A DNA stretch of 64,000 nucleotides from a virus (IMGVR_UViG_3300025870_000008:1-64000), one strand, 5' to 3'. Positions 7,765 through 22,668 are shown, counted from the stretch's first letter. Notes: generated by a model not told the origin, from the letters alone. Translations and numbers: made by a program.

Positions 7765-7819
7765 TTAAATTATAATTTTATATTTGACAAATAATATTTT
7801 ATACATTAGATATATTAAC

Positions 7820-8038: not shown

Positions 8039-8046
8039 TAGGTAGT

Positions 8047-8304: not shown

Positions 8305-8368
8305 CATTACTTCTTAGCTCAACTATGGTAGTCTTATATTAATCACCAATCACAACAAAAGGAAAATT

Positions 8369-8566: not shown

Positions 8567-9204
8567 AATATTTTATTTTATTTTTAGCTTCGTTTGTTTC
8601 TAGTTATGGAAATAAATTTATGCAACATCTTATTAATCCTTGGTATACAACCCAAGATTTAGATGAAAAAAGAGAAATTGGTAATAAAATTATTAACTTA
8701 ATGCATAAACATAATTATGGCAAAATCGGCAGGGATGGAATTAGATATAATGATGGAGGATGGTCGAAGGCGATCACCCTCAACCTTAGACAATTCGACA
8801 AAATAAATAAACCATTTAATCTAAAACTAAAAACAATAGATGGCAGAGTATACAATACGAAAGATCATTTAGGTAAAATAGTTTTTATTGATTTTTTTGC
8901 CACTTTCTGCAGTCCATGCAAAATAAACACAAATAATCTTATTAAAATAAAAGATAAATACGAAGACGAAGTATCTGTGTTGATAATATCAACAGATAGA
9001 AATAAAAATAATATAATTCAATATCAATCTCAATTAAAACATAAATTTGCAACCCATTTCGACTCAAAAGGTAGAAATAATAAATATAGTAAAGAATGGG
9101 GGGCAACTCTTGGAACTATATATATTATAAATAAAGATGGAACATTGCATGATATACATGGACACAAAAATATTTTTCATAAAGTTGAAAAACTTATACT
9201 ATAA
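8563..9204 (+). CDS. TlpA/ResA-like thioredoxin-fold protein
   Basis: GKIVFIDFFATFCSPCK CxxC motif, IYIINKDG; hydrophobic N-terminus. Confidence 0.8.
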   Translation: MKYFILFLASFVSSYGNKFMQHLINPWYTTQDLDEKREIGNKIINLMHKHNYGKIGRDGIRYNDGGWSKAITLNLRQFDKINKPFNLKLKTIDGRVYNTKDHLGKIVFIDFFATFCSPCKINTNNLIKIKDKYEDEVSVLIISTDRNKNNIIQYQSQLKHKFATHFDSKGRNNKYSKEWGATLGTIYIINKDGTLHDIHGHKNIFHKVEKLIL

Positions 9205-9337
9205 TATATAATATATAATATATAAAATGAAATGTAAATAATACTTGACAAATAACCAAATAAATAGTATTATATATACATAATCAAAATTGAGAACCAA
9301 ACTCAAGTAAATAAAATAAATTGATCTTTTACATTTT

Positions 9338-9675
9338 AATTTGAGCCTAGTCTAATCTCGCAAGAGAAGGGAATCATCGTTTAAATGCCTAAGCTAGACT
9401 CAATTCATTTTAATTCCTACAAGTAGCTAACATTAATCTTAGCGGACAAATAAAACTATTTGTAGGAAAACTTTGGAAGGGCTTATAATCCTTCCTGTGG
9501 GTGACTGAAATAACCTGTTGTGAGCGGGTTAAGGTATACGATTCTCTGTGGTGGAGTACCGATGGGCAAATGTCTGAGGTAGGATTTTCCCAATCCAATT
9601 GTAGTACGAGTAGGCACATAATGAACTAATGTTCACACCGAAAGTTGGGAGTATGTAGTAATCTCCCCCCACATC
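9338..9675 (+). ncRNA. candidate structured non-coding RNA
   Basis: No good ORF; promoter at 9246; many stems with G-U pairs and a GCAA tetraloop; terminator downstream. Confidence 0.5.
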
Positions 9676-9697
9676 TATTTCTCCTATCCCACCCCTC

Positions 9698-9740
9698 GCC
9701 CGTTCTCAGTTACTCCTTTTGTGCTGAGAGCGGGCTTTTT
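9698..9740 (+). terminator. rho-independent terminator
   Basis: GCCCGTTCTCAG-loop-CTGAGAGCGGGC followed by TTTTT. Confidence 0.8.
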
Positions 9741-9777
9741 ATTTGACACGGTAGGGAAACTAGACTAGTATACCATC

Positions 9778-10068
9778 ATGAATACATTATTAAAGATATT
9801 ATCGAAAGACCAATTTGGTTTTGTTACTAAAAACGACCTTGATATTCTTGAGGAGGAAATGCCTAATTTACCATTACTACTTCGTTTTGGGTGCGGACGC
9901 AAAGTTATTCAGTCGTATCAAGTTCGTGCAGCTGTTGAAAGCACTGAGCGAGACGGCGATTATCTTCGTGATGTTTCTATCGCTAGCCAAACTATAGATG
10001 AGATGGCCAAGTCTCCCTTTATACCTTTTGCTGTTAAACAAGCAATTGAGAATATGAGGTCTTGGTAA
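9778..10068 (+). CDS. hypothetical protein
   Basis: TTGACA-17-TAGTAT-6-ATG. Confidence 0.75.
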   Translation: MNTLLKILSKDQFGFVTKNDLDILEEEMPNLPLLLRFGCGRKVIQSYQVRAAVESTERDGDYLRDVSIASQTIDEMAKSPFIPFAVKQAIENMRSW

Positions 10069-10172
10069 TAGAATTTTCACACACGGGATCATTATGAACC
10101 CTTAACACAATAACTATATGGAGATTATAATATGTTTATCAATATACCTAGGACTCAAATTACTTTTAGATT

Positions 10173-10364
10173 ATGATTCTAATTAAATTTATAAAAAAAA
10201 TATTTTATTATTCTTTATCTTTGTTTCTATTATTTTATGCTAGCTTATTAGCTAAAGAATGGTTAATACCATGGTATCTAAATGCATATGATAAAGAAGC
10301 CTCCTGGGAAAATATGTATGAAGATAATAATAACTTACTTCCCAACCCTGTATATAATAAATAA
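10173..10364 (+). CDS. small membrane protein
   Basis: hydrophobic N-terminal helix. Confidence 0.5.
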   Translation: MILIKFIKKIFYYSLSLFLLFYASLLAKEWLIPWYLNAYDKEASWENMYEDNNNLLPNPVYNK

Positions 10365-10490
10365 CAGTATATAGAAATATACAATAGAGTATAATACAAA
10401 TAAAAACAATTCAAATAAAATAATAAATAAACTAAATAAATTTAAAATATATTTATAATGTAGTATCATAATGTCATATACTAGGCCCCC

Positions 10491-10563
10491 TAAGTCCTTA
10501 AGTATCAAGCACTTACGGCGGGCCGCCGCCATGCTATCTAAGTGTTTGGTATTCAGGCATTTA
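10491..10563. repeat. double-palindrome module copy 1
   Basis: TAAGTCCTTAAGTATCAAGCACTTA-23bp-TAAGTGTTTGGTATTCAGGCATTTA. Confidence 0.95.
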
Positions 10564-10625
10564 GGCGATAAAAATTATTTAACTTTTTTCTTGCTATAAC
10601 TAACAAACCGCCTTATTGTAGTTAT

Positions 10626-11027
10626 ATGATTAAGAGAAACCAACACGACCCACGATACATCATCAAGAAGAATCGTCCCGTATATGTTTACAAGAATCTA
10701 CACAAAGATTGTTGGAGCATCAAGCAACATGGTTTAGTTAAGGCTCATATTCCCAGGGGAGAAAGTATTGGGCTTTGGGATTGCTATTTTCATGTTGACA
10801 TCAAGGGTAGAGAAAAGGTTCTTCGTGAGAAGCGTAAGAATGTTCATGCTTTTGTTAAGGGTTATCTTCAGGATGCTGAGAACGTTAACATAGATAAGCC
10901 CGCCACAGAGGTAACCTATAACCCATATAAGTATGAAACTTTTGTTGACAAGAACACCGAGAAGTTTGTATACTATGCAGATGAAGTTTTATTATCACAC
11001 AACCAAGTAACCGCCTATATACCATGA
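10626..11027 (+). CDS. conserved hypothetical phage protein
   Basis: VYKNLH..CWS and REKVLREKRKNVHAFV motifs resemble a common uncharacterised phage family. Confidence 0.8.
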   Translation: MIKRNQHDPRYIIKKNRPVYVYKNLHKDCWSIKQHGLVKAHIPRGESIGLWDCYFHVDIKGREKVLREKRKNVHAFVKGYLQDAENVNIDKPATEVTYNPYKYETFVDKNTEKFVYYADEVLLSHNQVTAYIP

Positions 11028-11221
11028 GAATAGAAGAAAGAATGATAGATTATGCCCAAAAGTGGTATAAAGTGAACGACTTAGAGACAGAGAAAAAGAA
11101 CGGATCCGATCTTTATCTTCGTGTCAATGACAATGTATTTACTGAAGTCTCACACTGTGACATCAGACAAAAAGCCATTTTATGGTTGCAATCAGAACTA
11201 GAAGGAGTAATGTATAGTTAA
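11024..11221 (+). CDS. hypothetical protein
   Basis: ATGA-coupled ORF. Confidence 0.65.
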   Translation: MRIEERMIDYAQKWYKVNDLETEKKNGSDLYLRVNDNVFTEVSHCDIRQKAILWLQSELEGVMYS

Positions 11222-11425
11222 ATGAAAGAAGAATTAAAAGCAATTAGATGTGCCATTGACGGAGTCGCTGACGAGATTTTAGAAGATCGTAGACATGCAA
11301 ACATGGGAGACCTCGTCAAGGCAATGGAGAATATCAGCAGTACTCTCTGCACTATCAGCTATGACTTAAAAGATTTAGTTGAAGCAAAAAAGTTTCAGAA
11401 TGAATTAACGACAGCCTTAAGATAG
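11222..11425 (+). CDS. hypothetical protein
   Basis: abuts previous stop; ends 5 nt before module 2. Confidence 0.65.
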   Translation: MKEELKAIRCAIDGVADEILEDRRHANMGDLVKAMENISSTLCTISYDLKDLVEAKKFQNELTTALR

Positions 11426-11430
11426 TTTTG

Positions 11431-11503
11431 TAAGTCGCTCACTCTTAACCACTTAGGGTGAGCGGCGGCAATTTGCCTTAAGTGCTTAGTGTACAAAGAC
11501 TTA
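11431..11503. repeat. double-palindrome module copy 2
   Basis: TAAGTCGCTCACTCTTAACCACTTA-23bp-TAAGTGCTTAGTGTACAAAGACTTA. Confidence 0.95.
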
Positions 11504-11565
11504 TGGAAGTAAAATTAATTAGCTTTTTTCTTGTGTTATTTTGGAAACGGGTTTAGTATTATATT

Positions 11566-11730
11566 ATGAATACGATTGATATAACTCCTACATGGTCAGC
11601 GCTCGTTCCTATTATGATCGAGGTGTTGAAAAACCCAAAAGCTAACAAAACAGCAAAAGCGGAAGTAACACAAGAATTACTTCGCCTCGCAAAGATCGTA
11701 GACGACCAAAACAAAAAAGTCGTCAAATGA
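11566..11730 (+). CDS. hypothetical protein (54 aa, not in ORF track)
   Basis: MNTIDITPTWSALVPIMIEVLKNP...; TTGTGT-17-TAGTAT-6-ATG. Confidence 0.7.
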   Translation: MNTIDITPTWSALVPIMIEVLKNPKANKTAKAEVTQELLRLAKIVDDQNKKVVK

Positions 11731-11766
11731 TTTGACACCAACCCGTAATTAGTATAGTTTAGTATT

Positions 11767-11991
11767 ATGACACAAGACAAGATATTACAAACCATTCGTC
11801 AAATTTGCGAAGGCAACATGAGGTATGCCGATGCCATGGATCGAGTCAATCTCGAACGCGGCAAAGAACTTGGCGTAGATGGATTCACTGTTCAATCGGC
11901 TGAAGAAGCTCTTGCGGATCTCATTTGCTCTCTACAAGACTTTGAACACGAACTATGTATCAATGGCTCAATGGAGGGGGCATCATTATGA
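11767..11991 (+). CDS. hypothetical protein
   Basis: TTGACA-17-TAGTTT-6-ATG. Confidence 0.7.
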   Translation: MTQDKILQTIRQICEGNMRYADAMDRVNLERGKELGVDGFTVQSAEEALADLICSLQDFEHELCINGSMEGASL

Positions 11992-12194
11992 TAGTATTAG
12001 ATACACCAACACAAATCGAGGCATTTAGACTTCGTACATTACTCAAAGGCTTAAAACTTGAAACCATGGGCATGAAGATGTCGAGAGGTGCAAGTTGTTA
12101 TCAAATTGTCAAAGAAGATTTTGGCTTCAAAGGTAACAAGCAAAAAGTCTACGAACAATTCAAAGAATTATTAAAAAAGGAGAAATTAGCATGA
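11988..12194 (+). CDS. hypothetical phage protein
   Basis: ATG at 11988 with GGAGG RBS and ATGA overlap. Confidence 0.7.
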   Translation: MIVLDTPTQIEAFRLRTLLKGLKLETMGMKMSRGASCYQIVKEDFGFKGNKQKVYEQFKELLKKEKLA

Positions 12195-12391
12195 CACAAG
12201 CACAAGTAGAATCACGAGTAGAATCTTGGAATTGGAACATGAACATATTTGAAATTTATGATGAACTTAGAGATAATCACACCTCACAACAACAAGAACA
12301 ATTACTCACACATGCTTACAAATTTTTTAATAAAGATTCTAACATTTTAGAGCTTGCAAACCACTTCGGAATATATAGTATAGAAGAATGA
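12191..12391 (+). CDS. hypothetical protein
   Basis: ATGA-coupled, AGGAG RBS. Confidence 0.7.
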   Translation: MTQAQVESRVESWNWNMNIFEIYDELRDNHTSQQQEQLLTHAYKFFNKDSNILELANHFGIYSIEE

Positions 12392-12645
12392 AAAACAATT
12401 ATATAGAAGCAACCTGCATCGGCAGACCACTAGACTTACCAACTTGGGACGAACCAAGCGAGCTTTGGGAACTTTTCTTTGAAGAATCTCCAACCCCTTA
12501 TCATCCTTATGAGGATAGAGATATTATTTCCGTAAGTTTTGAATCGGCACAAGAGGTGACTAATGCTTACAATTATTACAACCAAAACCCATCCAAAGGA
12601 GGTGCATATGAAGAGTCTATTGAAGAAAATTTATCATTGGTTTAA
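12388..12645 (+). CDS. hypothetical acidic protein
   Basis: ATGA-coupled ORF. Confidence 0.65.
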   Translation: MKNNYIEATCIGRPLDLPTWDEPSELWELFFEESPTPYHPYEDRDIISVSFESAQEVTNAYNYYNQNPSKGGAYEESIEENLSLV

Positions 12646-12841
12646 TCCGATATACAAAATTGTTTATAAAACAATGGACGGGCGAATAGAAATGTACACT
12701 ATAGAACAACCTCGCCACCGCCACGAATTTGGCAATATGAAAGAAGGGAAATCCGTGGTGGGTTTTCGATCATTTTGCATCAATCGTGATGCCGTACGTT
12801 CATTTCGTTACGATAGAATCGTCTCACTTAACAAAATTTAA
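12608..12841 (+). CDS. hypothetical protein, possible WYL/SH3-like C-terminus
   Basis: ATG at 12608 after GGAGGT; C-terminal RDAVRSFRYDRI resembles WYL-type motif. Confidence 0.6.
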   Translation: MKSLLKKIYHWFNPIYKIVYKTMDGRIEMYTIEQPRHRHEFGNMKEGKSVVGFRSFCINRDAVRSFRYDRIVSLNKI

Positions 12842-12842
12842 T

Positions 12843-13001
12843 ATGAAACAAAAAACGGAACAATTAACCCTTCCTGAAATAGTCCGCAGATTAGGACATA
12901 TGCTCGCTCAAAGAGAGCGACGTGGAGATAGCTCACAAGATTATCTTGAAAGAAAAAAGATGCACGATAATTTATTGAGAAAGCTTTATAAGAGCTCCTA
13001 A
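12843..13001 (+). CDS. hypothetical protein
   Basis: ATG at 12843; TAA stop is the first 3 nt of module 3. Confidence 0.6.
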   Translation: MKQKTEQLTLPEIVRRLGHMLAQRERRGDSSQDYLERKKMHDNLLRKLYKSS

Positions 13002-13071
13002 GTCATTGATGGTTAAGCACTTAGGTGCTTGGCCCGCCGCGCGCTCTAAGTGTTTGATATTCAGTGGTTTA
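12999..13071. repeat. double-palindrome module copy 3
   Basis: TAAGTCATTGATGGTTAAGCACTTA-23bp-TAAGTGTTTGATATTCAGTGGTTTA. Confidence 0.95.
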
Positions 13072-13133
13072 GGTAAGTAAAATTAATTCTTTTTTTTCTT
13101 GTGTTATTTTGTTTTTTGGATTACTATATATAT

Positions 13134-13250
13134 ATGAAAGCAAGAGAATTAAAAGTAAGAAAACCAATCCTTTTTACCAAATCGCGTCCACACAAGGTGA
13201 GCGTCAAAACAATCCACAGAAAACTCAAACACAAGGAGGCATTAGCATGA
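13134..13250 (+). CDS. small basic peptide (38 aa, not in track)
   Basis: MKARELKVRKPILFTKSRPHKVSVKTIHRKLKHKEALA; follows module-linked promoter; ATGA overlap with next gene. Confidence 0.55.
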   Translation: MKARELKVRKPILFTKSRPHKVSVKTIHRKLKHKEALA

Positions 13251-13486
13251 ACATCAATCCCGAATTTAATTCCAAAGAAACCCCGTCTGCCGTTGGAGCA
13301 ATGCAAACATCTATGCAATGGTTATGGGAGAATTTTGTCGAGCCTCGTAAGCATGAACTTGATGGCGATGATACCGATATGCTTGCAATGGTTGGTTCAG
13401 TTTTGCTAGACATCGCAAGCGATGCCGAAGCATACCATGAAGTTCAAGGGGAAAAATTTATCGAAAGTCCATATTCTCGCAATTAA
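13247..13486 (+). CDS. hypothetical protein
   Basis: ATG at 13247 with AGGAGG RBS. Confidence 0.7.
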   Translation: MNINPEFNSKETPSAVGAMQTSMQWLWENFVEPRKHELDGDDTDMLAMVGSVLLDIASDAEAYHEVQGEKFIESPYSRN

Positions 13487-13524
13487 CTCTTGACAAAAAC
13501 AATCACTACTATATTATAGACATT

Positions 13525-14394
13525 ATGAATAACGAAGAAAATACCACTATCGCTCCTCGCAAATCCGTTAACCTTAACATCTGCGGAGGTAATCACTCAC
13601 TTGTACCACTTGAAGAAATCGCTAATGTGCCAACTCCGCCCGTAGAGTATCGCCAAAAAGAAAATGCTAATGGCGAGCGCACAGTTTCTTATCAACCAAT
13701 CGCTCACCATGAATTGGTGAATCGTACCAAGGGATTCCTTGCGGGTAATGGTTTCACCATTCAAGATGAAGTTCACTCGCTCGCTCGCAACAACAACCAT
13801 TATTTTGGATTGTTCTCTGTTGAGCATCCTAATCGTGAAGCTACTGATCGTGGAACTGTTGTGGGTATTCGCAACTCTCACGACAAAACTTTTCCTGCGG
13901 GATTGTGTGCGGGTGATGCCCCATTCGTTTGCGACAATCTTATTTTTACAAACACGATCAAACTTGCGCGTCGTCACACTCGCAACATTTTGAACGATTT
14001 AGATTTTACTATCAACCGCGCTCTTGGTAAGTTGTTTGGCTTTTGGCATGGTCAAGATGCTCGCATCGAAGCATACAAAAATCGCTCTATCGGGAATGTA
14101 TATGCTAACGATTTGATTGTCAAAGCTGCGCAGGTAGGAGCGCTTCCCAAATCAAAAATCATTGATGTTGTCAATCAATGGGAATCTTCCGATCATCCCG
14201 AATTTCATTCTCGTGATGTGAACTCTCTTTATAATGCTTTCACCGAAGTATATAAAGGTAACTTAACTCAACTTCCAAATCGTTCGGAGGCTTTACATTC
14301 GGTGCTAGATGGTTATGTCGATTTTAATATCGACTCTCACGTTGACAATGTTTTAGATATGGAGGTAGTCGAAGGCGAATTGGTAGAGGTGTAA
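13525..14394 (+). CDS. DUF932-family phage/plasmid protein
   Basis: YQPIAH, IRNSHDK, FVCDNL, RRHT and SLYNAFTE motifs. Confidence 0.8.
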   Translation: MNNEENTTIAPRKSVNLNICGGNHSLVPLEEIANVPTPPVEYRQKENANGERTVSYQPIAHHELVNRTKGFLAGNGFTIQDEVHSLARNNNHYFGLFSVEHPNREATDRGTVVGIRNSHDKTFPAGLCAGDAPFVCDNLIFTNTIKLARRHTRNILNDLDFTINRALGKLFGFWHGQDARIEAYKNRSIGNVYANDLIVKAAQVGALPKSKIIDVVNQWESSDHPEFHSRDVNSLYNAFTEVYKGNLTQLPNRSEALHSVLDGYVDFNIDSHVDNVLDMEVVEGELVEV

Positions 14395-14414
14395 ATAACC
14401 TCATTTGTGTAGCT

Positions 14415-14444
14415 AACCCCACCCTTTCGGGTGGGGTTTTTTTT
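14415..14444 (+). terminator. rho-independent terminator
   Basis: AACCCCACC-TTTCG-GGTGGGGTT followed by T-tract. Confidence 0.9.
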
Positions 14445-14463
14445 GGCTTGGATTGTTGTTTCA

Positions 14464-14536
14464 CAAGTGATTGATTATCAAGCACTTAGAGGGCGCCGCC
14501 GTCACGCGACTTAACTGCTTGGCGGATAACGACTTA
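14464..14536. repeat. double-palindrome module copy 4
   Basis: CAAGTGATTGATTATCAAGCACTTA-23bp-TAACTGCTTGGCGGATAACGACTTA. Confidence 0.95.
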
Positions 14537-14643
14537 CGAAAGCGAAATTAATTCACTTTTTCCTTGTGTTTATTTAGCCTACGCCTTATTGTTTATGTAT
14601 AAAGATTATTAAACCTAAACAATCACAATCACAATCACACATT

Positions 14644-15651
14644 ATGAAAGTTAAAGCGAGTAACAAACCAAAACTCAACTCTAAATCAGCTTCTGTTATA
14701 AAATTACAAAACTTAAGGAGTAAATTTGCTCAAAAACTTACAGAGGATGAATCTCTAATTATTTCCCTACAATTCGACGCAGAGTTCAAGAGGGATAATT
14801 TCGAGCATAAAGTGGTCGCTCTTACTGCTGATGATCTACCTTTAATTAATTACATGAGGTCTGAAAAAATTAACAACAACAACAGAAGTAAAGATGTTGA
14901 TAATGTCAAAAGGTTATTTCGTTGCCTCAAGGGAGAGGCATGGCATTACGAAACGGACGATATTAAAATTTGCTCCAATGGTTACCTATTAAATGGTCAG
15001 CACACATTGGAAGCTATATCTCAATATTTTAATGATGCTAGCACGTCGGAGGGAACAGAAGTTCTTTTAGGTTTCAAGTTGGGTGTTAGCGCGGGGGCGA
15101 TGCCTTATTTCGACACCCAAAAGAAAAGAAGTCCCGAGCAAAACCTTAAAATTAAGGGTGTTGCTCTCAACCCAATACAAAAGCAAATTGTTTTAGCTGA
15201 GGGCAGATATTCTATACTTGGCAACCCCTTTCCTCAAAGAGGTCAAATTAACTACTTTGAATATGAAAATGTAATTAAAGCCAATCAAGGTATACTAGAT
15301 AGAGTTTTTGATGCGATAAGTTTATCGACAGATTTTCCATGCAAAGCTATTGGCTACGCCTTATTCTTATTAGCTAAAAAAAACGAAGAGCTTGCTCAAG
15401 AGATAATGGACGATATTAGAGAACAACACTCTGAAGCGTTAAAAGACGGATCGATAAAATCTAGGTATAAAGTAAATTTAGGTCAAGAACATAGCTTGGT
15501 AGAACTCTTTCGAGAAGAAAAGCATCTCAAAATGTCCCATATGACAAGTAAGACATCTAGAGATTGTTATCGACAAGAAGAGTTCTTTCCTATTGCGGTG
15601 AATTGGTTGCTTGAAAACTACAAAATTGACAGAAAGACGTTTTCCCTATGA
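14644..15651 (+). CDS. ParB/DGQHR-like N-terminal domain protein
   Basis: NNNR, W..TDDIKI..NGYLLNGQHTLEAI (variant of DGQHR), FD..KKRS. Confidence 0.65.
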   Translation: MKVKASNKPKLNSKSASVIKLQNLRSKFAQKLTEDESLIISLQFDAEFKRDNFEHKVVALTADDLPLINYMRSEKINNNNRSKDVDNVKRLFRCLKGEAWHYETDDIKICSNGYLLNGQHTLEAISQYFNDASTSEGTEVLLGFKLGVSAGAMPYFDTQKKRSPEQNLKIKGVALNPIQKQIVLAEGRYSILGNPFPQRGQINYFEYENVIKANQGILDRVFDAISLSTDFPCKAIGYALFLLAKKNEELAQEIMDDIREQHSEALKDGSIKSRYKVNLGQEHSLVELFREEKHLKMSHMTSKTSRDCYRQEEFFPIAVNWLLENYKIDRKTFSL

Positions 15652-15986
15652 GTTGTTACATTAAACAAGCGATCACTTATTCAAAAGCGCTAGCGTACTA
15701 CATTGGCAACACTAGGCGATGTGCGGAAATTGAGAGGGGTGACCCTAAAAACCAACTAATCTCTAATTTTGAAAAAGAACATGGTAAAATATTTTGGAAG
15801 CTTGTGTTAGTAATCTCCGAAAATGAAACTCATCCCGAATTCGGGGAGTCTTTTTTAATCAATTGTTTCAAGCAAAAATTAAATCAACTTACTTTACTCA
15901 ATAAAAACATACCAAATATTATGGCTCTTACTTATGATAAAAAATCAGAGTCTATTATTGACAAATTTTCTAGATTGATTGTTTAG
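15648..15986 (+). CDS. hypothetical protein, possibly GIY-YIG-like
   Basis: YYIGNTRR...ESFLI...LLN pattern; weak. Confidence 0.45.
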   Translation: MSCYIKQAITYSKALAYYIGNTRRCAEIERGDPKNQLISNFEKEHGKIFWKLVLVISENETHPEFGESFLINCFKQKLNQLTLLNKNIPNIMALTYDKKSESIIDKFSRLIV

Positions 15987-15998
15987 GTTTAAACTGCG

Positions 15999-16071
15999 TA
16001 AGTTGCTGGTCTTCAGTGACTTACGTCAGTCTGCCGCCGCGCCGCTTAACTGCTTGATAAGCAACAACTTA
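15999..16071. repeat. double-palindrome module copy 5
   Basis: TAAGTTGCTGGTCTTCAGTGACTTA-23bp-TAACTGCTTGATAAGCAACAACTTA. Confidence 0.95.
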
Positions 16072-16133
16072 CGAAAGTAAATTTAATTCACTTTTTTCTT
16101 GTGTTCGGTTGGGTTTGGTAGTACTTTATACTT

Positions 16134-16334
16134 ATGAAAAGAATAATTAAAATCTTAATGGAGCGTGACGGGTTTTCTCATGAAGACGCTGAATTGCAAG
16201 TAAGCGCTTTTTTCTCTGAAATGGCTCTCCACTTAAATCAAGGCGGTGACCCTTTCGAGTGGGAAACTTTATTTGTTGACGAGTTCGGTTTAGAGCCTGA
16301 CTTTTTTGAAGATTTAGTGTTTGCATTACTTTAA
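16134..16334 (+). CDS. conserved hypothetical phage protein
   Basis: ILMERDG...EFGLEPDF motif; TTGTGT-17-TACTTT-6-ATG. Confidence 0.75.
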   Translation: MKRIIKILMERDGFSHEDAELQVSAFFSEMALHLNQGGDPFEWETLFVDEFGLEPDFFEDLVFALL

Positions 16335-16355
16335 AAATTAGTTTACTTTATTATT

Positions 16356-17084
16356 ATGATTAACCTACTATCCAATCCAAGCAAGATGCCTTGCTATTCG
16401 TTCAACATTCCTGCTTTCAAGTATTGCCCTGCCGCGCAGCTATTAGCAAAGATTAAAGAAGCGGGCAAAAAGTTTATTTGTGATTCTTGCTATGCTTGCA
16501 AAGGTTTTTATATGTTTTCCAATGTAAAGGCTAGCTTGCAAGGTAAAGCGGATCTTATCACAAAATCTTTACATCAAGACAACGGGCAAACCTTTATTGA
16601 CGCAATGTGCAAGCAAATTCGCGCAAAGTATTTTGACAAGCACGGCAACAAGAAAAAGCTTAAAAAGACCAACACCGATTTATTTCGCGTTCATGATTCG
16701 GGCGACCTCTTTTCCCCTAAGTATATTGCCGCGTGGGTTAAGATTTGCGAGCAATTCCCAACTATTAAATTTTGGTTTCCAACTAGGGAATGGAAGCGTG
16801 ACTCTCAACTTCCACACTTGCAAAAGTTAGCTAGTCTCAAAAACGTTTGCATTAAGCCAAGCGCTATTTATGTTGACGAGACAGCCCCTCAAGTGGACGG
16901 ACTTGACGCGGGAACTTCAGTTTATACTAGCAAAGAGAAAGCCGAGCAAGACGGACATTTTGTTTGCCCCGCAACTTATGTAAAGGGCGAGGACGGCAAG
17001 ATTCTTGCAACTTGTCAAGCCCATAATTGCAATCTTTGTTTCATTAAGGGTTGCAAGAAAGGTATTGCATATTTAGCTCATTAA
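16356..17084 (+). CDS. GP88-like Cys-rich phage protein
   Basis: SKMP, CP, CDSCYA, FRVHDSGD, WFPTRE and C-terminal Cys cluster. Confidence 0.75.
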   Translation: MINLLSNPSKMPCYSFNIPAFKYCPAAQLLAKIKEAGKKFICDSCYACKGFYMFSNVKASLQGKADLITKSLHQDNGQTFIDAMCKQIRAKYFDKHGNKKKLKKTNTDLFRVHDSGDLFSPKYIAAWVKICEQFPTIKFWFPTREWKRDSQLPHLQKLASLKNVCIKPSAIYVDETAPQVDGLDAGTSVYTSKEKAEQDGHFVCPATYVKGEDGKILATCQAHNCNLCFIKGCKKGIAYLAH

Positions 17085-17099
17085 ACTATACTTAAAACC

Positions 17100-17309
17100 A
17101 TGAAGACAGAAAATTACCAACTATTATTCGAGAGCGGGGATACTTATTACGATTCAGCCTATGGAGTTGATATTGACCAAGACCGAGCAATTCAGGAGTT
17201 GAAAGCTCACGGGGTTGATTTAGAAAAAGAATTGCAAAATTTTTATGATGATTTAGGCGACAAAGAAGGGTACGCAGCGCAAGACGTCTTAGAGTGGTTA
17301 GGGTACTGA
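17100..17309 (+). CDS. hypothetical acidic protein
   Basis: ends 2 nt before module 6. Confidence 0.7.
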   Translation: MKTENYQLLFESGDTYYDSAYGVDIDQDRAIQELKAHGVDLEKELQNFYDDLGDKEGYAAQDVLEWLGY

Positions 17310-17311
17310 CA

Positions 17312-17384
17312 TAAGTACCTAACCACCAAGCACTTAGAGAGCGCGGCGGCGGCGGTGCCTAACTGCTTGATATTCAACGATTTA
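17312..17384. repeat. double-palindrome module copy 6
   Basis: TAAGTACCTAACCACCAAGCACTTA-23bp-TAACTGCTTGATATTCAACGATTTA. Confidence 0.95.
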
Positions 17385-17446
17385 AAGAATTAAAATTAAT
17401 TCACTTTTTTCTTGTGTTTATTTGGTGTCGGGGTTATGTTGTTAGT

Positions 17447-17653
17447 ATGAATCATTCAGAAAGCGGAACACGAAAAGTATTAAAACAACTGCGCAAATGC
17501 GCAGAAATTACCGAGATCAAACAAACCGCCAAAGGGCACATGGTTCTCGCTGATAACGGAGCGCAAATTCTTGTTCATTTAAGCGCTCGTGCTTTTCACC
17601 CATTACGTCGTTGGCTCAAAGCTAACACTTCACTAAAATCATTAAAATTCTAA
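17447..17653 (+). CDS. small basic protein, HicA-like fold possible
   Basis: ATG at 17447; helix, KQTAKGHMVL, ILVH, helix pattern. Confidence 0.5.
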   Translation: MNHSESGTRKVLKQLRKCAEITEIKQTAKGHMVLADNGAQILVHLSARAFHPLRRWLKANTSLKSLKF

Positions 17654-17655
17654 TT

Positions 17656-17838
17656 ATGACAGCAAAAGAACTAATCGAACTTATCAATTCAACCCAGGAC
17701 GGAGAGATTTGGCTCTACAGTAGTAAACTTAGAGACCATCTTGCCACAGTCGAGCAAGCATTGGAGGAGGATTTAATCCACTTCATCCGCGCTGACGTAG
17801 GGAACAGCACCACAGAATTCATTCGTGTTTCTATTTGA
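17656..17838 (+). CDS. hypothetical protein
   Basis: 60-aa ORF. Confidence 0.6.
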   Translation: MTAKELIELINSTQDGEIWLYSSKLRDHLATVEQALEEDLIHFIRADVGNSTTEFIRVSI

Positions 17839-17869
17839 CACAGAGCAAAAATTAAACTACTTTATACTT

Positions 17870-18109
17870 ATGACAATTAAAGACAACGGAAAAGAATTCT
17901 ACTTCGAGCGCTTACCTAATGGCTTGCTCAGAACTTATGACTATGAATCAAAGTGGGATATTACATTCCAACGAGTTGACGGAGTATGGGAAGGACACCA
18001 TCGAGGCGACTATATCGGCTACAAAGGCTTACTCAACAAACTCAACTTATTACAACAACAAGTAGATGCAGAAAGAGCATTAGCAAAAGATTTAGCCGAA
18101 GTAGCTTGA
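17870..18109 (+). CDS. hypothetical protein
   Basis: TTGACA-17-TACTTT-6-ATG at 17870. Confidence 0.7.
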   Translation: MTIKDNGKEFYFERLPNGLLRTYDYESKWDITFQRVDGVWEGHHRGDYIGYKGLLNKLNLLQQQVDAERALAKDLAEVA

Positions 18110-18142
18110 CAAACAAAACAAACTAATTTAGTTTATTATTAT

Positions 18143-18529
18143 ATGAAAACATTCGATGATTTAAAATTCACACACCATAAAGATATTCAAAGATGGACTG
18201 CATCGCTTGAGCTTGACAACGGATATTTATTTTCTGTTATTGCGGGCGACAAAGAAGACGATTGGTCTTTACCTTATGGTACTTATCAGAATGAAACTTT
18301 TGAAGTTGCAGTATTTGGTACTCAATTTGACGACAACGGAGACAGAAAGAAAGTTCCTCTTTCTTTACATGATGATGTGCTAGGATGGCAAAAGCCTATT
18401 GACATTTCTAAACTCATGAGGCAATTTCAACTTGACGGAAAAGCTCACGAAGATTTGCTTATAGCAATTCGAGTAGACTTCAATGAAAAACTTGTTTCGC
18501 ATCACGATGACAAACCTTTAGTCATTTAA
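18143..18529 (+). CDS. conserved hypothetical phage protein
   Basis: MKTFDDLKF, NGY..SVI, FEVAV, DDVLGW motifs; own TTGACA promoter. Confidence 0.8.
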   Translation: MKTFDDLKFTHHKDIQRWTASLELDNGYLFSVIAGDKEDDWSLPYGTYQNETFEVAVFGTQFDDNGDRKKVPLSLHDDVLGWQKPIDISKLMRQFQLDGKAHEDLLIAIRVDFNEKLVSHHDDKPLVI

Positions 18530-18565
18530 TTTGACAAACCTTAAAAACTACATTACCTTATTATT

Positions 18566-18832
18566 ATGACATTAACACAAGAACAAAGAATATCGGTTAT
18601 CAAACACGCGCACGAAAATTCTCGTAAAGTTTCTCCGACTCAATCAGTCGAGGATTTTATTGCAGACATCAAGTCAGAGCAAGTTTTGGGCGAGCATGGT
18701 TTAGTAGATGCTCAAGTCCACGACGTGGAGGATGAGATGTCTTTATTCGCTTATAATCCTTGCGCTGAAGATATTGACGAGGAAGAAGATGGCTTTGGAA
18801 TTAGCGATGAAATGAAAGGGCTTTACTCATGA
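18566..18832 (+). CDS. hypothetical acidic protein
   Basis: TTGACA-17-TACCTT-6-ATG. Confidence 0.7.
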   Translation: MTLTQEQRISVIKHAHENSRKVSPTQSVEDFIADIKSEQVLGEHGLVDAQVHDVEDEMSLFAYNPCAEDIDEEEDGFGISDEMKGLYS

Positions 18833-18971
18833 GTTTATTTGCAATCGCTATACTTGCATTAGTTTTATACTTGACAATTCAAGATTAAAACTATAAACAG
18901 CGAAATACCAAATACCCAAATATTTTGTTTGTCGAAGGTGTGATATGCAGTAGTTACTAAAACCCCCGCCC

Positions 18972-19043
18972 TAAGTCTTTGATTATCAAGCACTTAGGCG
19001 GGCGGCTGCCGAAGCACCTAAGTGCTTCAGTATCAACGACTTA
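18972..19043. repeat. double-palindrome module copy 7 (convergent junction)
   Basis: TAAGTCTTTGATTATCAAGCACTTA-22bp-TAAGTGCTTCAGTATCAACGACTTA. Confidence 0.95.
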
Positions 19044-19283
19044 TTAAAAGTCGTATTGGTCGTGATAGCCGTAGTCGATGTCCTCGTAATGGTCTTCCCA
19101 TACGGGGGAATCTTCAGCCTCGTACATTTCAGCGAGAAGAGGTTGCTCCTCAAGGTAGCGCTCTTCCGCAAGGGCTTGGTTTGCTCGAGCAATATCTCTA
19201 TTGATCTCCTGCATTTGGTGGGCTTGCTGGTTTGCAAGGGCGGCGTGATCGTTGCGGTCGAAGTGTGAGTATTTACTAATCAT
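19044..19283 (-). CDS. hypothetical acidic protein
   Basis: ATG at 19283 after TTGCTA-17-TATGTT on minus strand; stop abuts module 7. Confidence 0.7.
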   Translation of the reverse strand: MISKYSHFDRNDHAALANQQAHQMQEINRDIARANQALAEERYLEEQPLLAEMYEAEDSPVWEDHYEDIDYGYHDQYDF

Positions 19284-19347
19284 ATATAAACAACATAAAG
19301 GGAGTGGCAACGGATAGCAAGAAAAAAAGCGATTTATTTTTATTTTT

Positions 19348-19420
19348 TAAATCCTTGGTTATCAAGCACTTAGAGCTCGCGGCGGCGGGCCGATATAACT
19401 CTTTGATTATCAACATTTTA
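19348..19420. repeat. double-palindrome module copy 8 (divergent junction)
   Basis: TAAATCCTTGGTTATCAAGCACTTA-23bp-TAACTCTTTGATTATCAACATTTTA; promoters on both sides. Confidence 0.95.
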
Positions 19421-19589
19421 CACAAGATAAAAAAACTAAAGATTTTTCTTGCTTTATTATACAGAACATGGCATATTAAAGTATGAAAAGAAAAAAACTA
19501 AAAATTATTAAAATTAAACACGCTAAATCGTATAACAAATTTATGATTGTTAAAATGCCTAAATTCTCACTTCTTAAATCTGCTTAATT

Positions 19590-19814
19590 ATGAATTGCAA
19601 AAGAGTACCATACCCAGAACTAGACTGCTCCCTTAAAATGAGTAAAGTGGAGGGGCTGCTTCAATTCCTTAAAGGTCAGACTATGATGGGTTGGAGAGGA
19701 AGCGAGACAGAAAAAGAAGCAATTTGCGAAGCTCTTGACAACTTACGAGAAGCTCAAGATGAATATCAAAAAGTCTTGACATTACTTAGAAAAACCAACA
19801 AAATAGAATTATGA
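19590..19814 (+). CDS. hypothetical protein
   Basis: 74-aa ORF, ATGA overlap with next. Confidence 0.6.
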   Translation: MNCKRVPYPELDCSLKMSKVEGLLQFLKGQTMMGWRGSETEKEAICEALDNLREAQDEYQKVLTLLRKTNKIEL

Positions 19815-20041
19815 CGGATACAACATATAATGGATGGAAAAACTGGGCAACCTGGAACGTAGCGCTATGGCTAGGTAATGATGAGGGTCTTTATAAGATA
19901 GCTCGAAGATGTGTGAGGTATGCTGACCTCGTGGATAGGTTAGAAGAAGCTGAAGCATTCAGGACTCCTGACGGGGCGAGCTACAATGACCCCGACCTTG
20001 ATACCTACGCACTTGATGAGTTGTTAATGGACGAATTCTGA
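19811..20041 (+). CDS. conserved hypothetical phage protein
   Basis: YNGWKNWATWNVALWLGNDEGLY...TPDG motif of a common uncharacterised phage family. Confidence 0.8.
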   Translation: MTDTTYNGWKNWATWNVALWLGNDEGLYKIARRCVRYADLVDRLEEAEAFRTPDGASYNDPDLDTYALDELLMDEF

Positions 20042-20046
20042 TAACC

Positions 20047-20118
20047 TAACCCGCTGACTATCAAGCACTTACGAAGCGGGCTGCCGAGCCCTCTAAGTGC
20101 TTGATTATTAGTGACTTA
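20047..20118. repeat. double-palindrome module copy 9 (convergent junction)
   Basis: TAACCCGCTGACTATCAAGCACTTA-22bp-TAAGTGCTTGATTATTAGTGACTTA. Confidence 0.95.
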
Positions 20119-20126
20119 GGAGGTTG

Positions 20127-20279
20127 TTATTTATTTTTGAATTCGTTAATGATTTGGTTAAAAGTCCAAACGTTGTTTCCAACGTCCAAGAATAGTTCTG
20201 CGCCTTCGAGTGGTTCAAAGCCTAGGCGGTCAATGATGCCTAGCTCTTCCGTCATGAATTTTTCGAGTTCTTCTGTCAT
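20127..20279 (-). CDS. hypothetical protein (50 aa, not in track)
   Basis: MTEELEKFMTEELGIIDRLGFEPLEG...; AGGAG RBS. Confidence 0.6.
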   Translation of the reverse strand: MTEELEKFMTEELGIIDRLGFEPLEGAELFLDVGNNVWTFNQIINEFKNK

Positions 20280-20310
20280 GTTTTTATTCTCCTAAATTAA
20301 AGGGTTTATG

Positions 20311-20655
20311 TCAAATTAAATCGTAATATTTTGGTGAACAATTTACTGAATGAGAAACTGAATCAATTCCCTCATCCATGTTTTTTTTCAAATATGCTTT
20401 GATTTTGTTTGCAATTTCGAGGTCAATTTTTTCAAGCTTTTTTCCGTCTTCGTCAAATATGTCCATATTTTCCAAAGTGTCGAAATATGCTATCAGGTGA
20501 GTCTCTGAGACTTGGTCGCCATAGAGCGAGTCGATTTCGTCTGTCCATGTCGTGCCTTCAATTTCACAAGTTAAATTTTCAATTTCCACATAGGCAGAAA
20601 AAGTTTCTTCGTTAATTTCGTCAAAGTTTAATTCTAGTTTTTTATTTTCTGTCAT
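20311..20655 (-). CDS. highly acidic protein
   Basis: TTGACT-17-GATAGT-5-ATG on minus strand. Confidence 0.75.
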   Translation of the reverse strand: MTENKKLELNFDEINEETFSAYVEIENLTCEIEGTTWTDEIDSLYGDQVSETHLIAYFDTLENMDIFDEDGKKLEKIDLEIANKIKAYLKKNMDEGIDSVSHSVNCSPKYYDLI

Positions 20656-20769
20656 ACCTTACTATCTTCTATTTTTTAACTAAAGTCAAACATATAGCCG
20701 ATTATTTTACATAAAGTTATTCACAATTATCTTGGCTAGAGTTGGCACGATTCCTGTACAAGGCTTTCA

Positions 20770-20840
20770 TAAGTCGTTGATTATCAAGCTGTTACGAGAG
20801 CCGCAGCGCGTTCCCTAAGTGCTTGACTATAAGGAACTTA
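20770..20840. repeat. double-palindrome module copy 10
   Basis: TAAGTCGTTGATTATCAAGCTGTTA-21bp-TAAGTGCTTGACTATAAGGAACTTA. Confidence 0.95.
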
Positions 20841-20845
20841 CAACG

Positions 20846-21016
20846 CTATCTTTGAGTCATAGCCTCTAGCTCTCGGATCTTAAAGTCAAGCTGAATTTGC
20901 ATGGCTTGCAAGCGATTGACTGATTCGGTTTTATTTAGACGTTTTGCTTTTATCCTTTGGATATTGATATCCATGATTTGCTTATTTAAGAATTTGATTT
21001 GTTCTACTATATTCAT
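20846..21016 (-). CDS. small coiled-coil protein (56 aa, not in track)
   Basis: MNIVEQIKFLNKQIMDINIQRIKAKRLNK...; ATGA overlap upstream. Confidence 0.55.
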   Translation of the reverse strand: MNIVEQIKFLNKQIMDINIQRIKAKRLNKTESVNRLQAMQIQLDFKIRELEAMTQR

Positions 21017-21129
21017 TTTCTTGACACGTCTTGGAAAAGGTCGATTTGATCGCTAGTCATATCTCTATACATAAGATAGAAAACAACTAACCAATTTGAG
21101 AACATAAGTATTTCAAGTATTGTATTCAT
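21013..21129 (-). CDS. small membrane peptide (38 aa, not in track)
   Basis: MNTILEILMFSNWLVVFYLMYRD... Confidence 0.45.
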   Translation of the reverse strand: MNTILEILMFSNWLVVFYLMYRDMTSDQIDLFQDVSRK

Positions 21130-21183
21130 GATTATAGATTAAGGAAGTAGTAAACAAAAGACAAGCATATTATTGTAAGCATA

Positions 21184-21351
21184 TTATTTTTCTTTTATTT
21201 GGTTTACGATTTGCAAGTGTGGATTCTCGCGTTTGATTGCCCTTGCTTTTTCTAAGGCTTTTGCTATATTCTTTTGATTGTCTACTAGCTCGCCCCAAAG
21301 ACGAATATCTAACCAATTTGAGAAGTTTACGTTTTTTGTGATTGTTATCAT
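21184..21351 (-). CDS. hypothetical protein (55 aa, not in track), paralog of 7820..8038
   Basis: MITITKNVNFSNWLDIRLWGELVDNQKNIAKALEKARAIKREN; GGAGG RBS. Confidence 0.65.
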   Translation of the reverse strand: MITITKNVNFSNWLDIRLWGELVDNQKNIAKALEKARAIKRENPHLQIVNQIKEK

Positions 21352-21361
21352 TATTGCCTCC

Positions 21362-21556
21362 TTATCTTGTGAAGTATTCTTTTACTTGTCCATTGTTAGC
21401 TTTAACCAAGTCAGAGAGGTAAACCTCTTCTGATTCGTTGTGATGCTTTACTAAAGCTAAGCGCATTCTGTTGCTCAGTTCAGTTACTCTTACGACTTTG
21501 CCTAATGACTTCGAGAAGTACAGGCTTCCGACTTTGTATCCTTTTTCAATCTTCAT
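21362..21556 (-). CDS. hypothetical protein, SH3-like size and pattern
   Basis: TTGACG-17-GATAGT-6-ATG. Confidence 0.7.
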   Translation of the reverse strand: MKIEKGYKVGSLYFSKSLGKVVRVTELSNRMRLALVKHHNESEEVYLSDLVKANNGQVKEYFTR

Positions 21557-21628
21557 ACTATTACTATCGTATATTTTAGCCTCTACGTCAAACTTTTTAA
21601 CGATTTATTTTAGCTGTTTTTGCTTTCT

Positions 21629-21699
21629 TAAGTCGTTGATTATTAGGCACTTATGACGCGGGCGGCGCGACCCCTAAGTGCTTGAATATCAGGTGTTTA
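21629..21699. repeat. double-palindrome module copy 11
   Basis: TAAGTCGTTGATTATTAGGCACTTA-21bp-TAAGTGCTTGAATATCAGGTGTTTA. Confidence 0.95.
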
Positions 21700-21921
21700 G
21701 GAATGCCGAGCTTCTAACTTATCAAGGAACTTTTCAAACCTTTTGTGCTTGACTTTTAGTTCGGCAAGTCTCTTTTCTGCTCTCCTTAGCTCGGGCATGG
21801 CAAGCATTTCGATTGCCATTTCATCTGCCTTTGGATTTGTCGAGTTCTTACGGGTGTTATCTATTACGGATTTGATTTGCTTGATCCGTGCTTCGGTGTG
21901 GATTATATCTAATTCTGTCAT
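21697..21921 (-). CDS. hypothetical coiled-coil protein
   Basis: TTGCAA-17-GATAGT-6-ATG; stop overlaps the end of module 11. Confidence 0.7.
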   Translation of the reverse strand: MTELDIIHTEARIKQIKSVIDNTRKNSTNPKADEMAIEMLAMPELRRAEKRLAELKVKHKRFEKFLDKLEARHS

Positions 21922-21959
21922 GCTATTACTATCGTTTATTTTTTAATTAATTGCAAACT

Positions 21960-22121
21960 TTATTTGATAAAGTTTACCCAAGATTCAACTCTTTGATTCC
22001 AAGTTAGTTGGGCTTTCGCTTCTGCATCCCATATATCTATTAGAGCGTCGAGTATCCAAACTTGACGCTTTTGCAAGCGCGCTTTTCTCATCACCTTTGT
22101 TATTCTTTCTAGTCTTGTCAT
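21960..22121 (-). CDS. hypothetical protein (53 aa, not in track)
   Basis: MTRLERITKVMRKARLQKRQVWILDALIDIW...; starts 1 nt after upstream stop. Confidence 0.55.
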   Translation of the reverse strand: MTRLERITKVMRKARLQKRQVWILDALIDIWDAEAKAQLTWNQRVESWVNFIK

Positions 22122-22122
22122 A

Positions 22123-22443
22123 TTAGCTAAGTGCTTTGATTAATTCGTTTTCGTTTGTGTTACTAACAAGCGAGCGGTTAAGTACATTGTACAGAAAGCT
22201 TTCGATTATGTTTTCCAATTCTTCAACATCATAAGTTAAGGAGATTTCCTTTTCGTCTTCATCTTCGATAGATTCGACCTCGATGGAATCGACAAGCACG
22301 TTGCCATCTTCTGTCTCTAAAGTAGCGTTTACACTCATGCCACCCTCAAAGTAGTTTTTACCTGTGTTAAAGTTTAGGTATACGTTTACAACGTTGTCGT
22401 CGATGCAGTCGATGGTGTCTAGTTCTAGTTCTTTAATGTTCAT
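22123..22443 (-). CDS. highly acidic protein
   Basis: TTGACT-17-GATAGT-6-ATG. Confidence 0.75.
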   Translation of the reverse strand: MNIKELELDTIDCIDDNVVNVYLNFNTGKNYFEGGMSVNATLETEDGNVLVDSIEVESIEDEDEKEISLTYDVEELENIIESFLYNVLNRSLVSNTNENELIKALS

Positions 22444-22668
22444 ACTATTACTATCGTCTATTTACAGGTTGAAGTCAAATTTATTTACGATTATTATTCA
22501 ACTAAGTTTTTGCACGATCCCGCCCCCATTTTTTGAATTTTTTTTACAGGGTATGGTTCATTTTTAGCGGGGGGGTGGTTTTTCTCAAAAAGTCAAGACG
22601 AATTTCTCTGTGCAATTACATATGTGAAAAAAAAACCGACAAACCTTTTTTTTACTGTACTCATATGT

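Follow-up and report, generated by a model that had tools for sequence, protein, structure and literature searches.

The promoter-early stem-loop (PeSL) is a composite intergenic element of T4-type phages in which a G/C-rich stem-loop, shown to terminate transcription, is combined with an A/T-rich tract and an early promoter of the sigma-70 type; a Shine-Dalgarno sequence with a start codon completes it (Arbiol et al. 2010, PMC2839356). PeSLs are found on either side of orphan genes, which are shuffled by means of them (PMC2839356; Comeau et al. 2014, PMC4122927). The subject of this report is a family of paired palindromes, here called modules and numbered M1 to M11, that lie between positions 10491 and 21699 in the early region of a phage known from the record IMGVR_UViG_3300025870_000008. 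The record is 80,842 bp long and is rated complete by CheckV; the window, the whole stretch analyzed, is its first 64 kb. We lean, with slightly better than even confidence, toward reading the module as a boundary element that lies between transcription units, or cassettes, and is recognized as double-stranded DNA by a sequence-specific protein.

Among known systems, the PeSL comes closest to the modules in function and behavior, and the modules are not without precedent. Both are composite cassettes repeated in the intergenic spaces among small orphan early genes. In both, a G+C-rich dyad is followed by an A/T-rich tract and an early promoter of the sigma-70 type, and in both systems the breakpoints of insertions, deletions, and replacements between relatives fall in the cassettes. 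The dyad of the module, however, consists of two 25-bp palindromes with four conserved half-sites and shows no covariation, whereas that of the PeSL is a simple stem-loop of free sequence. Most module-linked genes lack a Shine-Dalgarno leader, their ATG following the -10 box by ~6 nt, and modules also stand alone at convergent junctions or between divergent promoters. Moreover, the phage that bears the modules is not T4-like, as its 2,798-aa tape-measure protein and divergent terminase attest.

The first-pass annotation had proposed a dedicated cis-acting system without a named equivalent. The lack of a name stands. No Rfam family matches any module at E up to 1 in the region 9000-23000, and nothing resembling a module occurs in GenBank phages (50,697 records), where a search for distant relatives of one module returned just chance intragenic matches of 18-25 nt. 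A literature search with the four arm 9-mers gave no such element in a phage context among the matches listed, and one for phage intergenic inverted repeats associated with early promoters gave the PeSL paper as its only relevant match. The parallels with PeSL cassettes in place, content, and evolutionary behavior nevertheless temper the proposal.

Likenesses to other repeats are partial. The BIME-1/RIB elements of enterobacteria also consist of two opposed palindromic units with a short linker and are extragenic, at the ends of transcription units (PMC2817692, citing Boccard and Prentki 1993; PMC3333891). They are docking places for DNA-architectural proteins (PMC2817692), as the modules may be. 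In the module, the linker is 65-87% G+C and free of letters resembling sites for integration host factor (IHF), which are carried instead by the palindromes; in BIME-1 the arrangement is reversed. The phage has 11 copies, as against hundreds per chromosome, no RAYT-type transposase was found, and the sequence is unrelated to that of REPs. The 17-bp dyad repeats of Cluster O mycobacteriophages are likewise many-copy, phage-specific palindromes, largely intergenic, with no known binder and noted at a gene insertion (PMC4351075), but each is a single 7+3+7 palindrome found genome-wide, unpaired, without a G+C spacer, tied to no one promoter class, and of other sequence (PMC4351075). The stoperators of Cluster A mycobacteriophages, many dispersed sites for one protein that are said to stop elongation, offer a precedent for protein-dependent boundaries (PMC9283540). 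Stoperators are asymmetric and serve a monomeric immunity repressor of temperate phages, whereas modules are paired palindromes, and a search of the present phage revealed no integrase.

Structure of the Modules

Each of the 11 modules is 71-73 bp long and comprises a 25-bp palindrome, a 21-23-nt spacer, and a second 25-bp palindrome. Four copies of a half-site of ~10 bp, TAAGTSSTTG, are thereby arranged in the order in-out-in-out around the spacer. All of the starts reported in the first-pass annotation are confirmed (Table 1), and its lengths hold, although two details of its geometry need revision. It had described 9-bp arms around a variable 7 bp; the 7-bp centers do differ from module to module, but because the common center, GATTATC, is itself symmetric, the consensus palindrome is really 12+1+12. 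In M8 the right palindrome occupies 19396-19420, so that the register implied earlier has to be shifted one base rightward.

The spacers, annotated as GC-rich, have a G+C content of 65-87%, as compared to 37.5% for the region, and contain one to three GCNGC motifs apiece. The reported difference between inner and outer arms is also real. Inner arms keep TAAGTGCTT, with G at position 6 in 9/11 a2 and 10/11 a3 arms; outer arms are looser and tend to C at that position (7/11 a1 arms). The pattern TAAGTGCTT-N7-AAGCACTTA, with <=3 mismatches allowed, matches the window 14 times, whereas 100 shuffles lead one to expect 0.08 matches, and all 14 matches in the 80,842-bp record fall within 10491-21653. 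With a looser score, both palindromes are recovered in 10 modules (in M8, at 19348, the second one misses the threshold), and nothing comparable is found elsewhere in the genome. The earlier statement that the rest of the window is free of modules can thus be extended to the whole 80.8-kb genome.

A mini-CRISPR or solitary repeat unit was considered and rejected. The spacers are all G+C-rich and nearly alike across the 12 modules of a related genome, G002, and there is no Rfam CRISPR match; being nearly identical in those 12 modules, the spacers were not acquired from foreign DNA.

Conservation of the Half-Sites

For the analysis of conservation, 52 modules with 208 arms were drawn from six genomes, namely the present phage (G000) and five related records (G001-G005; G004 and G005 are also listed as loci L034 and L036). 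Position 2 of the half-site is A in 207/208 arms, position 3 is A in 208/208, and position 9 is T in 206/208. Positions 1, 4, 5, 8, and 10 are strongly kept, while positions 6-7 are free, mostly C or G. The same positions are invariant although the proteins shared between genomes are only ~24-42% identical; G000, G001, G002, G004, and G005 have terminase-, portal-, and capsid-region proteins in common.

Pairing between arms was scored for two local hairpins and for the long hairpin, with a null in which partner arms were shuffled within each genome. Watson-Crick pairing in the 52 modules, at 0.66-0.72, is no different from the null whichever scheme is used (z -1.3 to 0.0; -1.4 to +1.4 when G-U pairs are counted). 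A further 117 viral loci yielded 338 distinct modules, from 63 of the loci, and in these, too, there is no positive covariation (z -3.4 to -5.4). Their logo, T A A G T C S T T G/A, is that of the six genomes, with the reservation that this set was picked by similarity to the consensus, so that conservation is inflated at the scored positions 1-9.

Because the arms show no covariation and three positions are almost invariant, the pattern points to a protein that reads double-stranded DNA rather than to an RNA hairpin. Four inverted half-sites kept position by position, without compensatory change, fit the imprint of a dimeric DNA-binding protein. The earlier suggestion of selection for protein binding is upheld in so far as position-specific conservation and the lack of covariation support recognition of the protein type; binding itself is what we infer from that pattern.

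The protein might conceivably be one of the host. If each half-site were an IHF site, the module would approximate a BIME-1/RIB, and bending of the DNA would aid promoters and recombination. The consensus palindrome, read from its center outwards as TATCAAGCACTTA, is a full match to the 13-bp IHF consensus WATCARNNNNTTR (consensus: PMC9820253), and the invariant positions are the CAA and TT of that consensus. In BIME-1, two opposed REPs surround an IHF-binding linker (PMC2817692). Exact WATCAANNNNTTR is found in 17/44 half-sites of G000 and 16/48 of G002, genomes of which the modules make up 1%. Upstream IHF sites activate lambda pL and Mu Pe, and a host factor would account for the missing phage-encoded binder. 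Exact matches are rare, however, in the other four genomes (4/36 in G001, 0/28 in G003, 2/24 in G004, and 4/28 in G005). The WAT part of the consensus (positions 11-13) is unconstrained in the 338 modules, where position 10 is G in 153-217 of 338 arms, whereas positions 4-5, free in the IHF consensus, are kept. In addition, an IHF site is asymmetric, whereas in the modules two consensus copies in inverted orientation overlap within 25 bp. It may also be that the host lacks IHF; the metagenome-assembled genome (MAG) bins of related contigs span several phyla. An HU/IHF-family gene is present in only 1/15 other palindrome-bearing viral records. Because of the rarity of matches in four genomes, the unconstrained WAT, and the conservation of positions that IHF leaves free, we retain host IHF only as an unlikely occupant of the half-sites.

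Junctions, Promoters, and Terminators

Every module lies at a junction of transcription units, as had been claimed: M7 and M9 between convergent units, M8 between divergent ones, and the rest in tandem. The relation is not reciprocal, since 14 of 21 promoter-like sites, and the divergent junction near 22.5 kb, have no module. After seven modules there is a conserved plus-strand tract in which an A/T-rich stretch leads to a weak -35 box (TTGTGT, TTGCTA, or TTGCTT) and then to a -10 box. The ATG lies ~6 nt past the -10 box in six of these seven tracts; after M4 the leader is ~50 nt. With the leftward tract of M8, which precedes a 79-aa gene (19282->19044) whose stop codon abuts M7, eight sigma-70-type promoter-like tracts, defined by consensus matches only, adjoin 7 of the 11 modules, and all eight, with their weak -35 boxes, begin 27 bp from a module. 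M7 and M9 have no adjoining promoter, and M10 and M11 lie upstream of a second promoter type used by minus-strand genes.

The 21 promoter-like sites came from a scan of 6-23 kb for sites directly followed by ATG. Five have a module exactly 27 bp upstream, all five with a weak -35 box and an ATG 6-8 nt past the -10 box; three further module-linked promoters were identified by eye. The 14 sites counted above have no module within 150 bp, and 8 of the 14 have TTGACA. Given this linkage to weak -35 boxes, the modules mark one promoter class rather than every junction. With the ATG only 6-8 nt after the -10 box, no Shine-Dalgarno sequence fits in the module-linked genes. At all 21 sites (6000-23000, both strands), the distance from -10 to ATG is 5-8 nt. 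Many early genes thus appear to be leaderless, and leaderlessness may be informative about the host. Large genes elsewhere likewise show little Shine-Dalgarno signal.

A terminator scan of 9-23 kb yielded 12 terminator-like sites, none of which is a module, and no module contains a T-run. The best site, 14415-14446, is a textbook terminator that precedes M4. Its presence shows that conventional terminators operate in this region and that the module is something other than one more of them.

Possible Mode of Action

If the module is a boundary read by a protein, a dimeric sequence-specific protein would dock on the half-sites, perhaps as two dimers per module, with the G+C-rich spacer serving as a stiff element between the two palindromes. 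The module would then end one early transcription unit and open the next. The bound protein could tune the promoters linked at 27 bp, either by activation or by joint shut-off, and protein and G+C clamp together would hinder read-through into the neighboring unit. The position of the modules suggests such an effect on transcription.

Several observations weigh against recognition by a protein at such a boundary, in addition to the way in which the 338 modules were chosen. In RNA folding, 6 of the 11 modules form a long stable hairpin (z -3.5 to -7.3), and some modules may have a structural role as RNA hairpins, as these predicted folds would allow. Contigs from RNA libraries span M3, M4, M6, and M7 together with M8. 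The modules are therefore not absolute stops, unless the contigs derive from DNA in the libraries; the runs were kept as assembled contigs, in which transcript ends and strand are not visible. The distance between module and promoter, fixed in G000 and G001, is variable in G004/G005 (19, 21, 30, and 61 bp, counted by eye), which disfavors a strictly phased activator throughout the family, and in G003 genes begin 16 nt from the module, leaving no room for a separate promoter. Among 33 proteins of or beside the early region, Pfam reveals no DNA-binding family, nor does PHROGs for 10 of those 33. BLAST clustering of open reading frames (ORFs) from module-bearing genomes and loci reveals no family present in all.

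The hairpins favor a plain stem-loop of the PeSL type, an RNA hairpin or DNA cruciform that would terminate or attenuate transcription both ways, its copies being alike through duplication and gene conversion without any dedicated protein. For five of the six well-folding modules, 0/200 shuffles folded as well, and a short G+C hairpin formed by the spacer often lies at the tip. The modules stand at the 3' ends of units, where two of them separate convergent genes and have no promoter, and PeSL stem-loops with G/C tracts have been published as effective terminators (PMC2839356). We consider this explanation improbable all the same. The other five modules fold poorly (z -0.8 to -1.9), no better than many shuffles, and the predicted folds vary from module to module and across the six genomes, from one long hairpin to three short ones. 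Only 62-72% of arm positions pair, no pairing scheme shows covariation, and the half-site positions are invariant between genomes whose proteins have diverged to ~24-42% identity. M8 lies between divergent promoters, where there is nothing to terminate. Finally, the modules lack a T-run, and none is detected by the scan that finds the canonical terminator before M4.

Most proteins of or beside the early region (29/33) have no Pfam match over threshold. The commonest neighbors of modules in 120 sources are sigma-factor-like proteins (34), DUF932-like proteins (27), an ERCC4-type nuclease (22), and the large terminase (21); the gene at 13525-14394 is grouped by Atlas with DUF932 clusters. The sigma-factor-like family, the commonest of these, is represented at 28470-29210 (+) by a protein of 246 aa whose N-terminus is basic and which matches Sigma70_r2 weakly (E 3e-4, below the Pfam cut-off). 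The nuclease, at 30332-31261 (+) just upstream of the large terminase gene, has an N-terminal C2H2 zinc finger (weak Pfam match) and a C-terminal ERCC4-type nuclease domain (PHROG 3490, E 3e-12). ERCC4-like matches occur in 8/9 and sigma-like matches in 7/9 large module-bearing records; because one record, G020, has neither (E up to 0.001), the two are not shown to be universal. A protein family common to G003 and the loci L010, L011, and L014 is no obvious DNA binder by sequence. A 66-aa acidic protein encoded at 16134-16334 (+) is weakly HU/IHF-like in its first 38 residues (E 0.008, below cut-off); its G001 homologue has no match, and we give it no weight.

Rearrangement of Cassettes

The breakpoints of rearrangements lie at modules and module promoters. 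Nucleotide blocks common to G000 and G001/G002 mostly start or end at modules or promoters. In G001 the cassettes of G000 occur in another order, with most ends of shared blocks at modules: the 13101-14394 cassette, with a module on each side, is ahead of the 10626 cassette; the 14644-15986 cassette is nested in another cassette without modules of its own; and a module splits the genes of the 17414-18832 unit, whose order is changed. Further variants are found in public runs. In one contig the stretch between the right palindromes of M7 and M8 is replaced, 19027 being joined to 19395 through 573 other letters. A contig from run X16 lacks 20035-20764, that is, M9 and the cassette up to M10, and other contigs join 10594 and 17414, in the promoter tracts after M1 and M6, to the cassette from 13125. 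These joints come from assembled contigs of marine runs, in which chimeras at repeats are not fully excludable; chimeras are less likely because the assembler's words, at 31 letters, are longer than the shared exact stretches and because the joints contain letters peculiar to them. For 14604-16004, the low cover in runs X15 and X16 is not interpretable.

Recombination is the process that we infer behind these rearrangements, and a role of the modules as its joints is well supported. Since the early region has no long repeats other than the modules and their promoters, and each module is its own inverted repeat, exchange of cassettes is possible, and homologous recombination between modules could delete, replace, move, or invert the cassettes that they flank. 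An exchange between two modules can invert the intervening DNA because each is self-inverted. After such an inversion, the module at the convergent junction would be bare and the one at the divergent junction would have two promoters. This is the state of the one-gene cassette between M7 and M8, which is inverted and whose promoter adjoins M8.

The movement and inversion of cassettes at modules also recall site-specific recombination. The 9+7+9 palindrome would then be the core site of a tyrosine recombinase, the pair of palindromes an attC-like site, and the array an integron-like one. A 9-bp arm, 7-bp center, and 9-bp arm, like paired "simple sites" around a variable center, do resemble recombinase core sites and attC. 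Tyrosine recombinases or integrases (PF00589) are, however, absent from the complete G000 and were found in 0/5 and 0/46 module-bearing records (7 of the 46 being >=90% complete), in a search whose controls matched in 14/14 reference genomes; Y1 transposases (IS200/IS605-type, PF01797) are found in 0/5 records. Differing 7-bp centers would block strand exchange between modules, several of the variant joints lie in the promoter tract rather than in the palindrome, and most cassettes have their own promoters and are not all co-oriented. With neither recombinase nor Y1 enzyme found and with centers that differ, an attC-like or dif-like system is disfavored, and we regard it as very improbable.

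It is scarcely less doubtful that a conserved phage nuclease, for which the C2H2 and ERCC4-type protein of 30332-31261 would be the candidate, cuts or nicks the palindromes. It would thereby target the loss, gain, relocation, or inversion of cassettes without a recombinase, providing an analogue of the integron in phages of 80 to 230 kb.

Distribution among Viruses

The modules are not peculiar to one genome. The single-palindrome pattern is found in 19 viral contigs, 6 of which have arrays of paired palindromes, and the paired pattern itself was matched by at least 118 viral stretches, from contigs 5 to 244 kb long. That the modules are a real family, widespread across uncultured phages, is hereby confirmed and extended. 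Among 117 newly fetched loci, 63 have at least three modules with one modal spacing, most often 53 bp (34 loci), followed by 50 (8), 52 (7), 48 (4), and 42 bp (3); their mean spacer G+C is 0.76, as compared to 0.40 for the loci. Within each of the six genomes the spacing is constant, and it differs among them (46-48, 42, 51, and 53). Loss of the 25-spacer-25 geometry in relatives, raised earlier as a refuting outcome, is not seen: the geometry is kept, with a spacing fixed within a genome and differing between genomes.

If one protein reads all of the modules, a large group of uncultured aquatic phages would share an undescribed means of fencing and co-regulating early genes. The modules would mark the boundaries of cassettes, and hence exchangeable accessory genes, for example those for host takeover or anti-defense, in phage genomes from metagenomes. 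The modules also carry the idea of mobile regulatory cassettes, developed for the PeSLs, beyond T4-type phages and add a sequence-specific component to it.

Some of the isolated single palindromes in 13 other viral loci may be no more than chance hairpins, and nothing is built on them. In L020, a 168-kb viral contig, three successive genes each have a single palindrome (43-67, 396-420, and 778-802) immediately ahead of the ribosome-binding site, which is another use of the palindrome sequence. In the lineage with 53-bp spacing, three tandem 12-13-nt motifs (GTAGCAAAATGC and variants) lie between some modules and the next gene (L034/G004, ~14885-14960 and 15711-15790; likewise in L036/G005). 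A unit of ~150 bp resembling a miniature inverted-repeat transposable element, with long terminal inverted repeats and a module-like core, is found on at least eight contigs of a Planctomycetota MAG of 65-70% G+C (loci L060, L061, L064, L072, L074, L085, L093, and L109). Considered as a relative of the modules, it was rejected as probably unrelated.

The Phage and Its Host

Besides the tape-measure protein of 2,798 aa, the phage encodes rIIA/rIIB-like proteins. The best matches to its large terminase among cultured phages (of Bacillus and Clostridium) reach only 24-28% identity, so that the phage must be counted as an uncultured tailed phage, and GenBank phages contain no DNA nearly identical to 10000-22000. 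The public runs that contain it are labeled marine metagenome; runs X17-X20 (share <0.2) were left out of this habitat assignment. WhiB, a marker of actinobacterial phages, is found in 0/5 records. A scan of a genome collection for hosts gave 81 stretches, of which 11 were judged by eye to be true modules. All 11 are on MAG contigs of <=17.7 kb in bins of different phyla, and because the contigs are so small and so variously binned no host can be named.

Table 1. Modules and associated features of the early region (positions in the window)
Feature	Position	Strand	Remarks
M1	10491..10563	.	23-nt G+C-rich spacer; tandem junction
Promoter-like tract of M1	10564..10625	+	A/T-rich; -35 TTGCTA 27 bp after M1, -10 TATTGT, ATG 6 nt on; consensus match only; gene 10626-11027
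M2	11431..11503	.	tandem junction
Promoter-like tract of M2	11504..11565	+	-35 TTGTGT 27 bp after M2; ATG 11566
M3	12999..13071	.	tandem junction; first TAA is the stop codon of gene 12786-13001
Promoter-like tract of M3	13072..13133	+	ahead of 38-aa ORF from 13134; ORF has homologue in G001
Canonical intrinsic terminator	14415..14446	+	10-bp stem and T-run; between gene 13525-14394 and M4
M4	14464..14536	.	tandem junction
M5	15999..16071	.	tandem junction
Promoter-like tract of M5	16072..16133	+	-35 TTGTGT 27 bp after M5; ATG 16134
M6	17312..17384	.	tandem junction
Promoter-like tract of M6	17385..17446	+	-35 TTGTGT 27 bp after M6; ATG 17447
M7	18972..19043	.	convergent genes 18566-18832 (+) / 19282-19044 (-); no adjoining promoter
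Leftward promoter-like tract of M8	19283..19347	-	-35 TTGCTA 27 bp from M8; ATG at 19282
M8	19348..19420	.	between two divergent module-linked promoters
Rightward promoter-like tract of M8	19421..19482	+	ATG 19483, 34-aa ORF, then gene 19590
M9	20047..20118	.	convergent genes; missing with cassette to 20765 in one X16 contig
M10	20770..20840	.	tandem, minus-strand genes; 80 bp upstream of promoter-like site for gene 20655-20311
M11	21629..21699	.	tandem, minus-strand genes; 37 bp upstream of promoter-like site for gene 21556-21362

Other Features of the Window

A GTGTA motif recurs 15-25 nt upstream of many late genes (for example at 33167, 35265, 36906, and 62759). The genes concerned encode structural proteins, and the motif, close ahead of their start codons, may be a promoter element for a phage-encoded sigma factor. 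Ahead of the first module, positions 9475-9677 (+) give a full-length match to the manA RNA motif (Rfam RF01745), with 77.8 bits against a gathering threshold of 55.2 and an E value of 1e-18.

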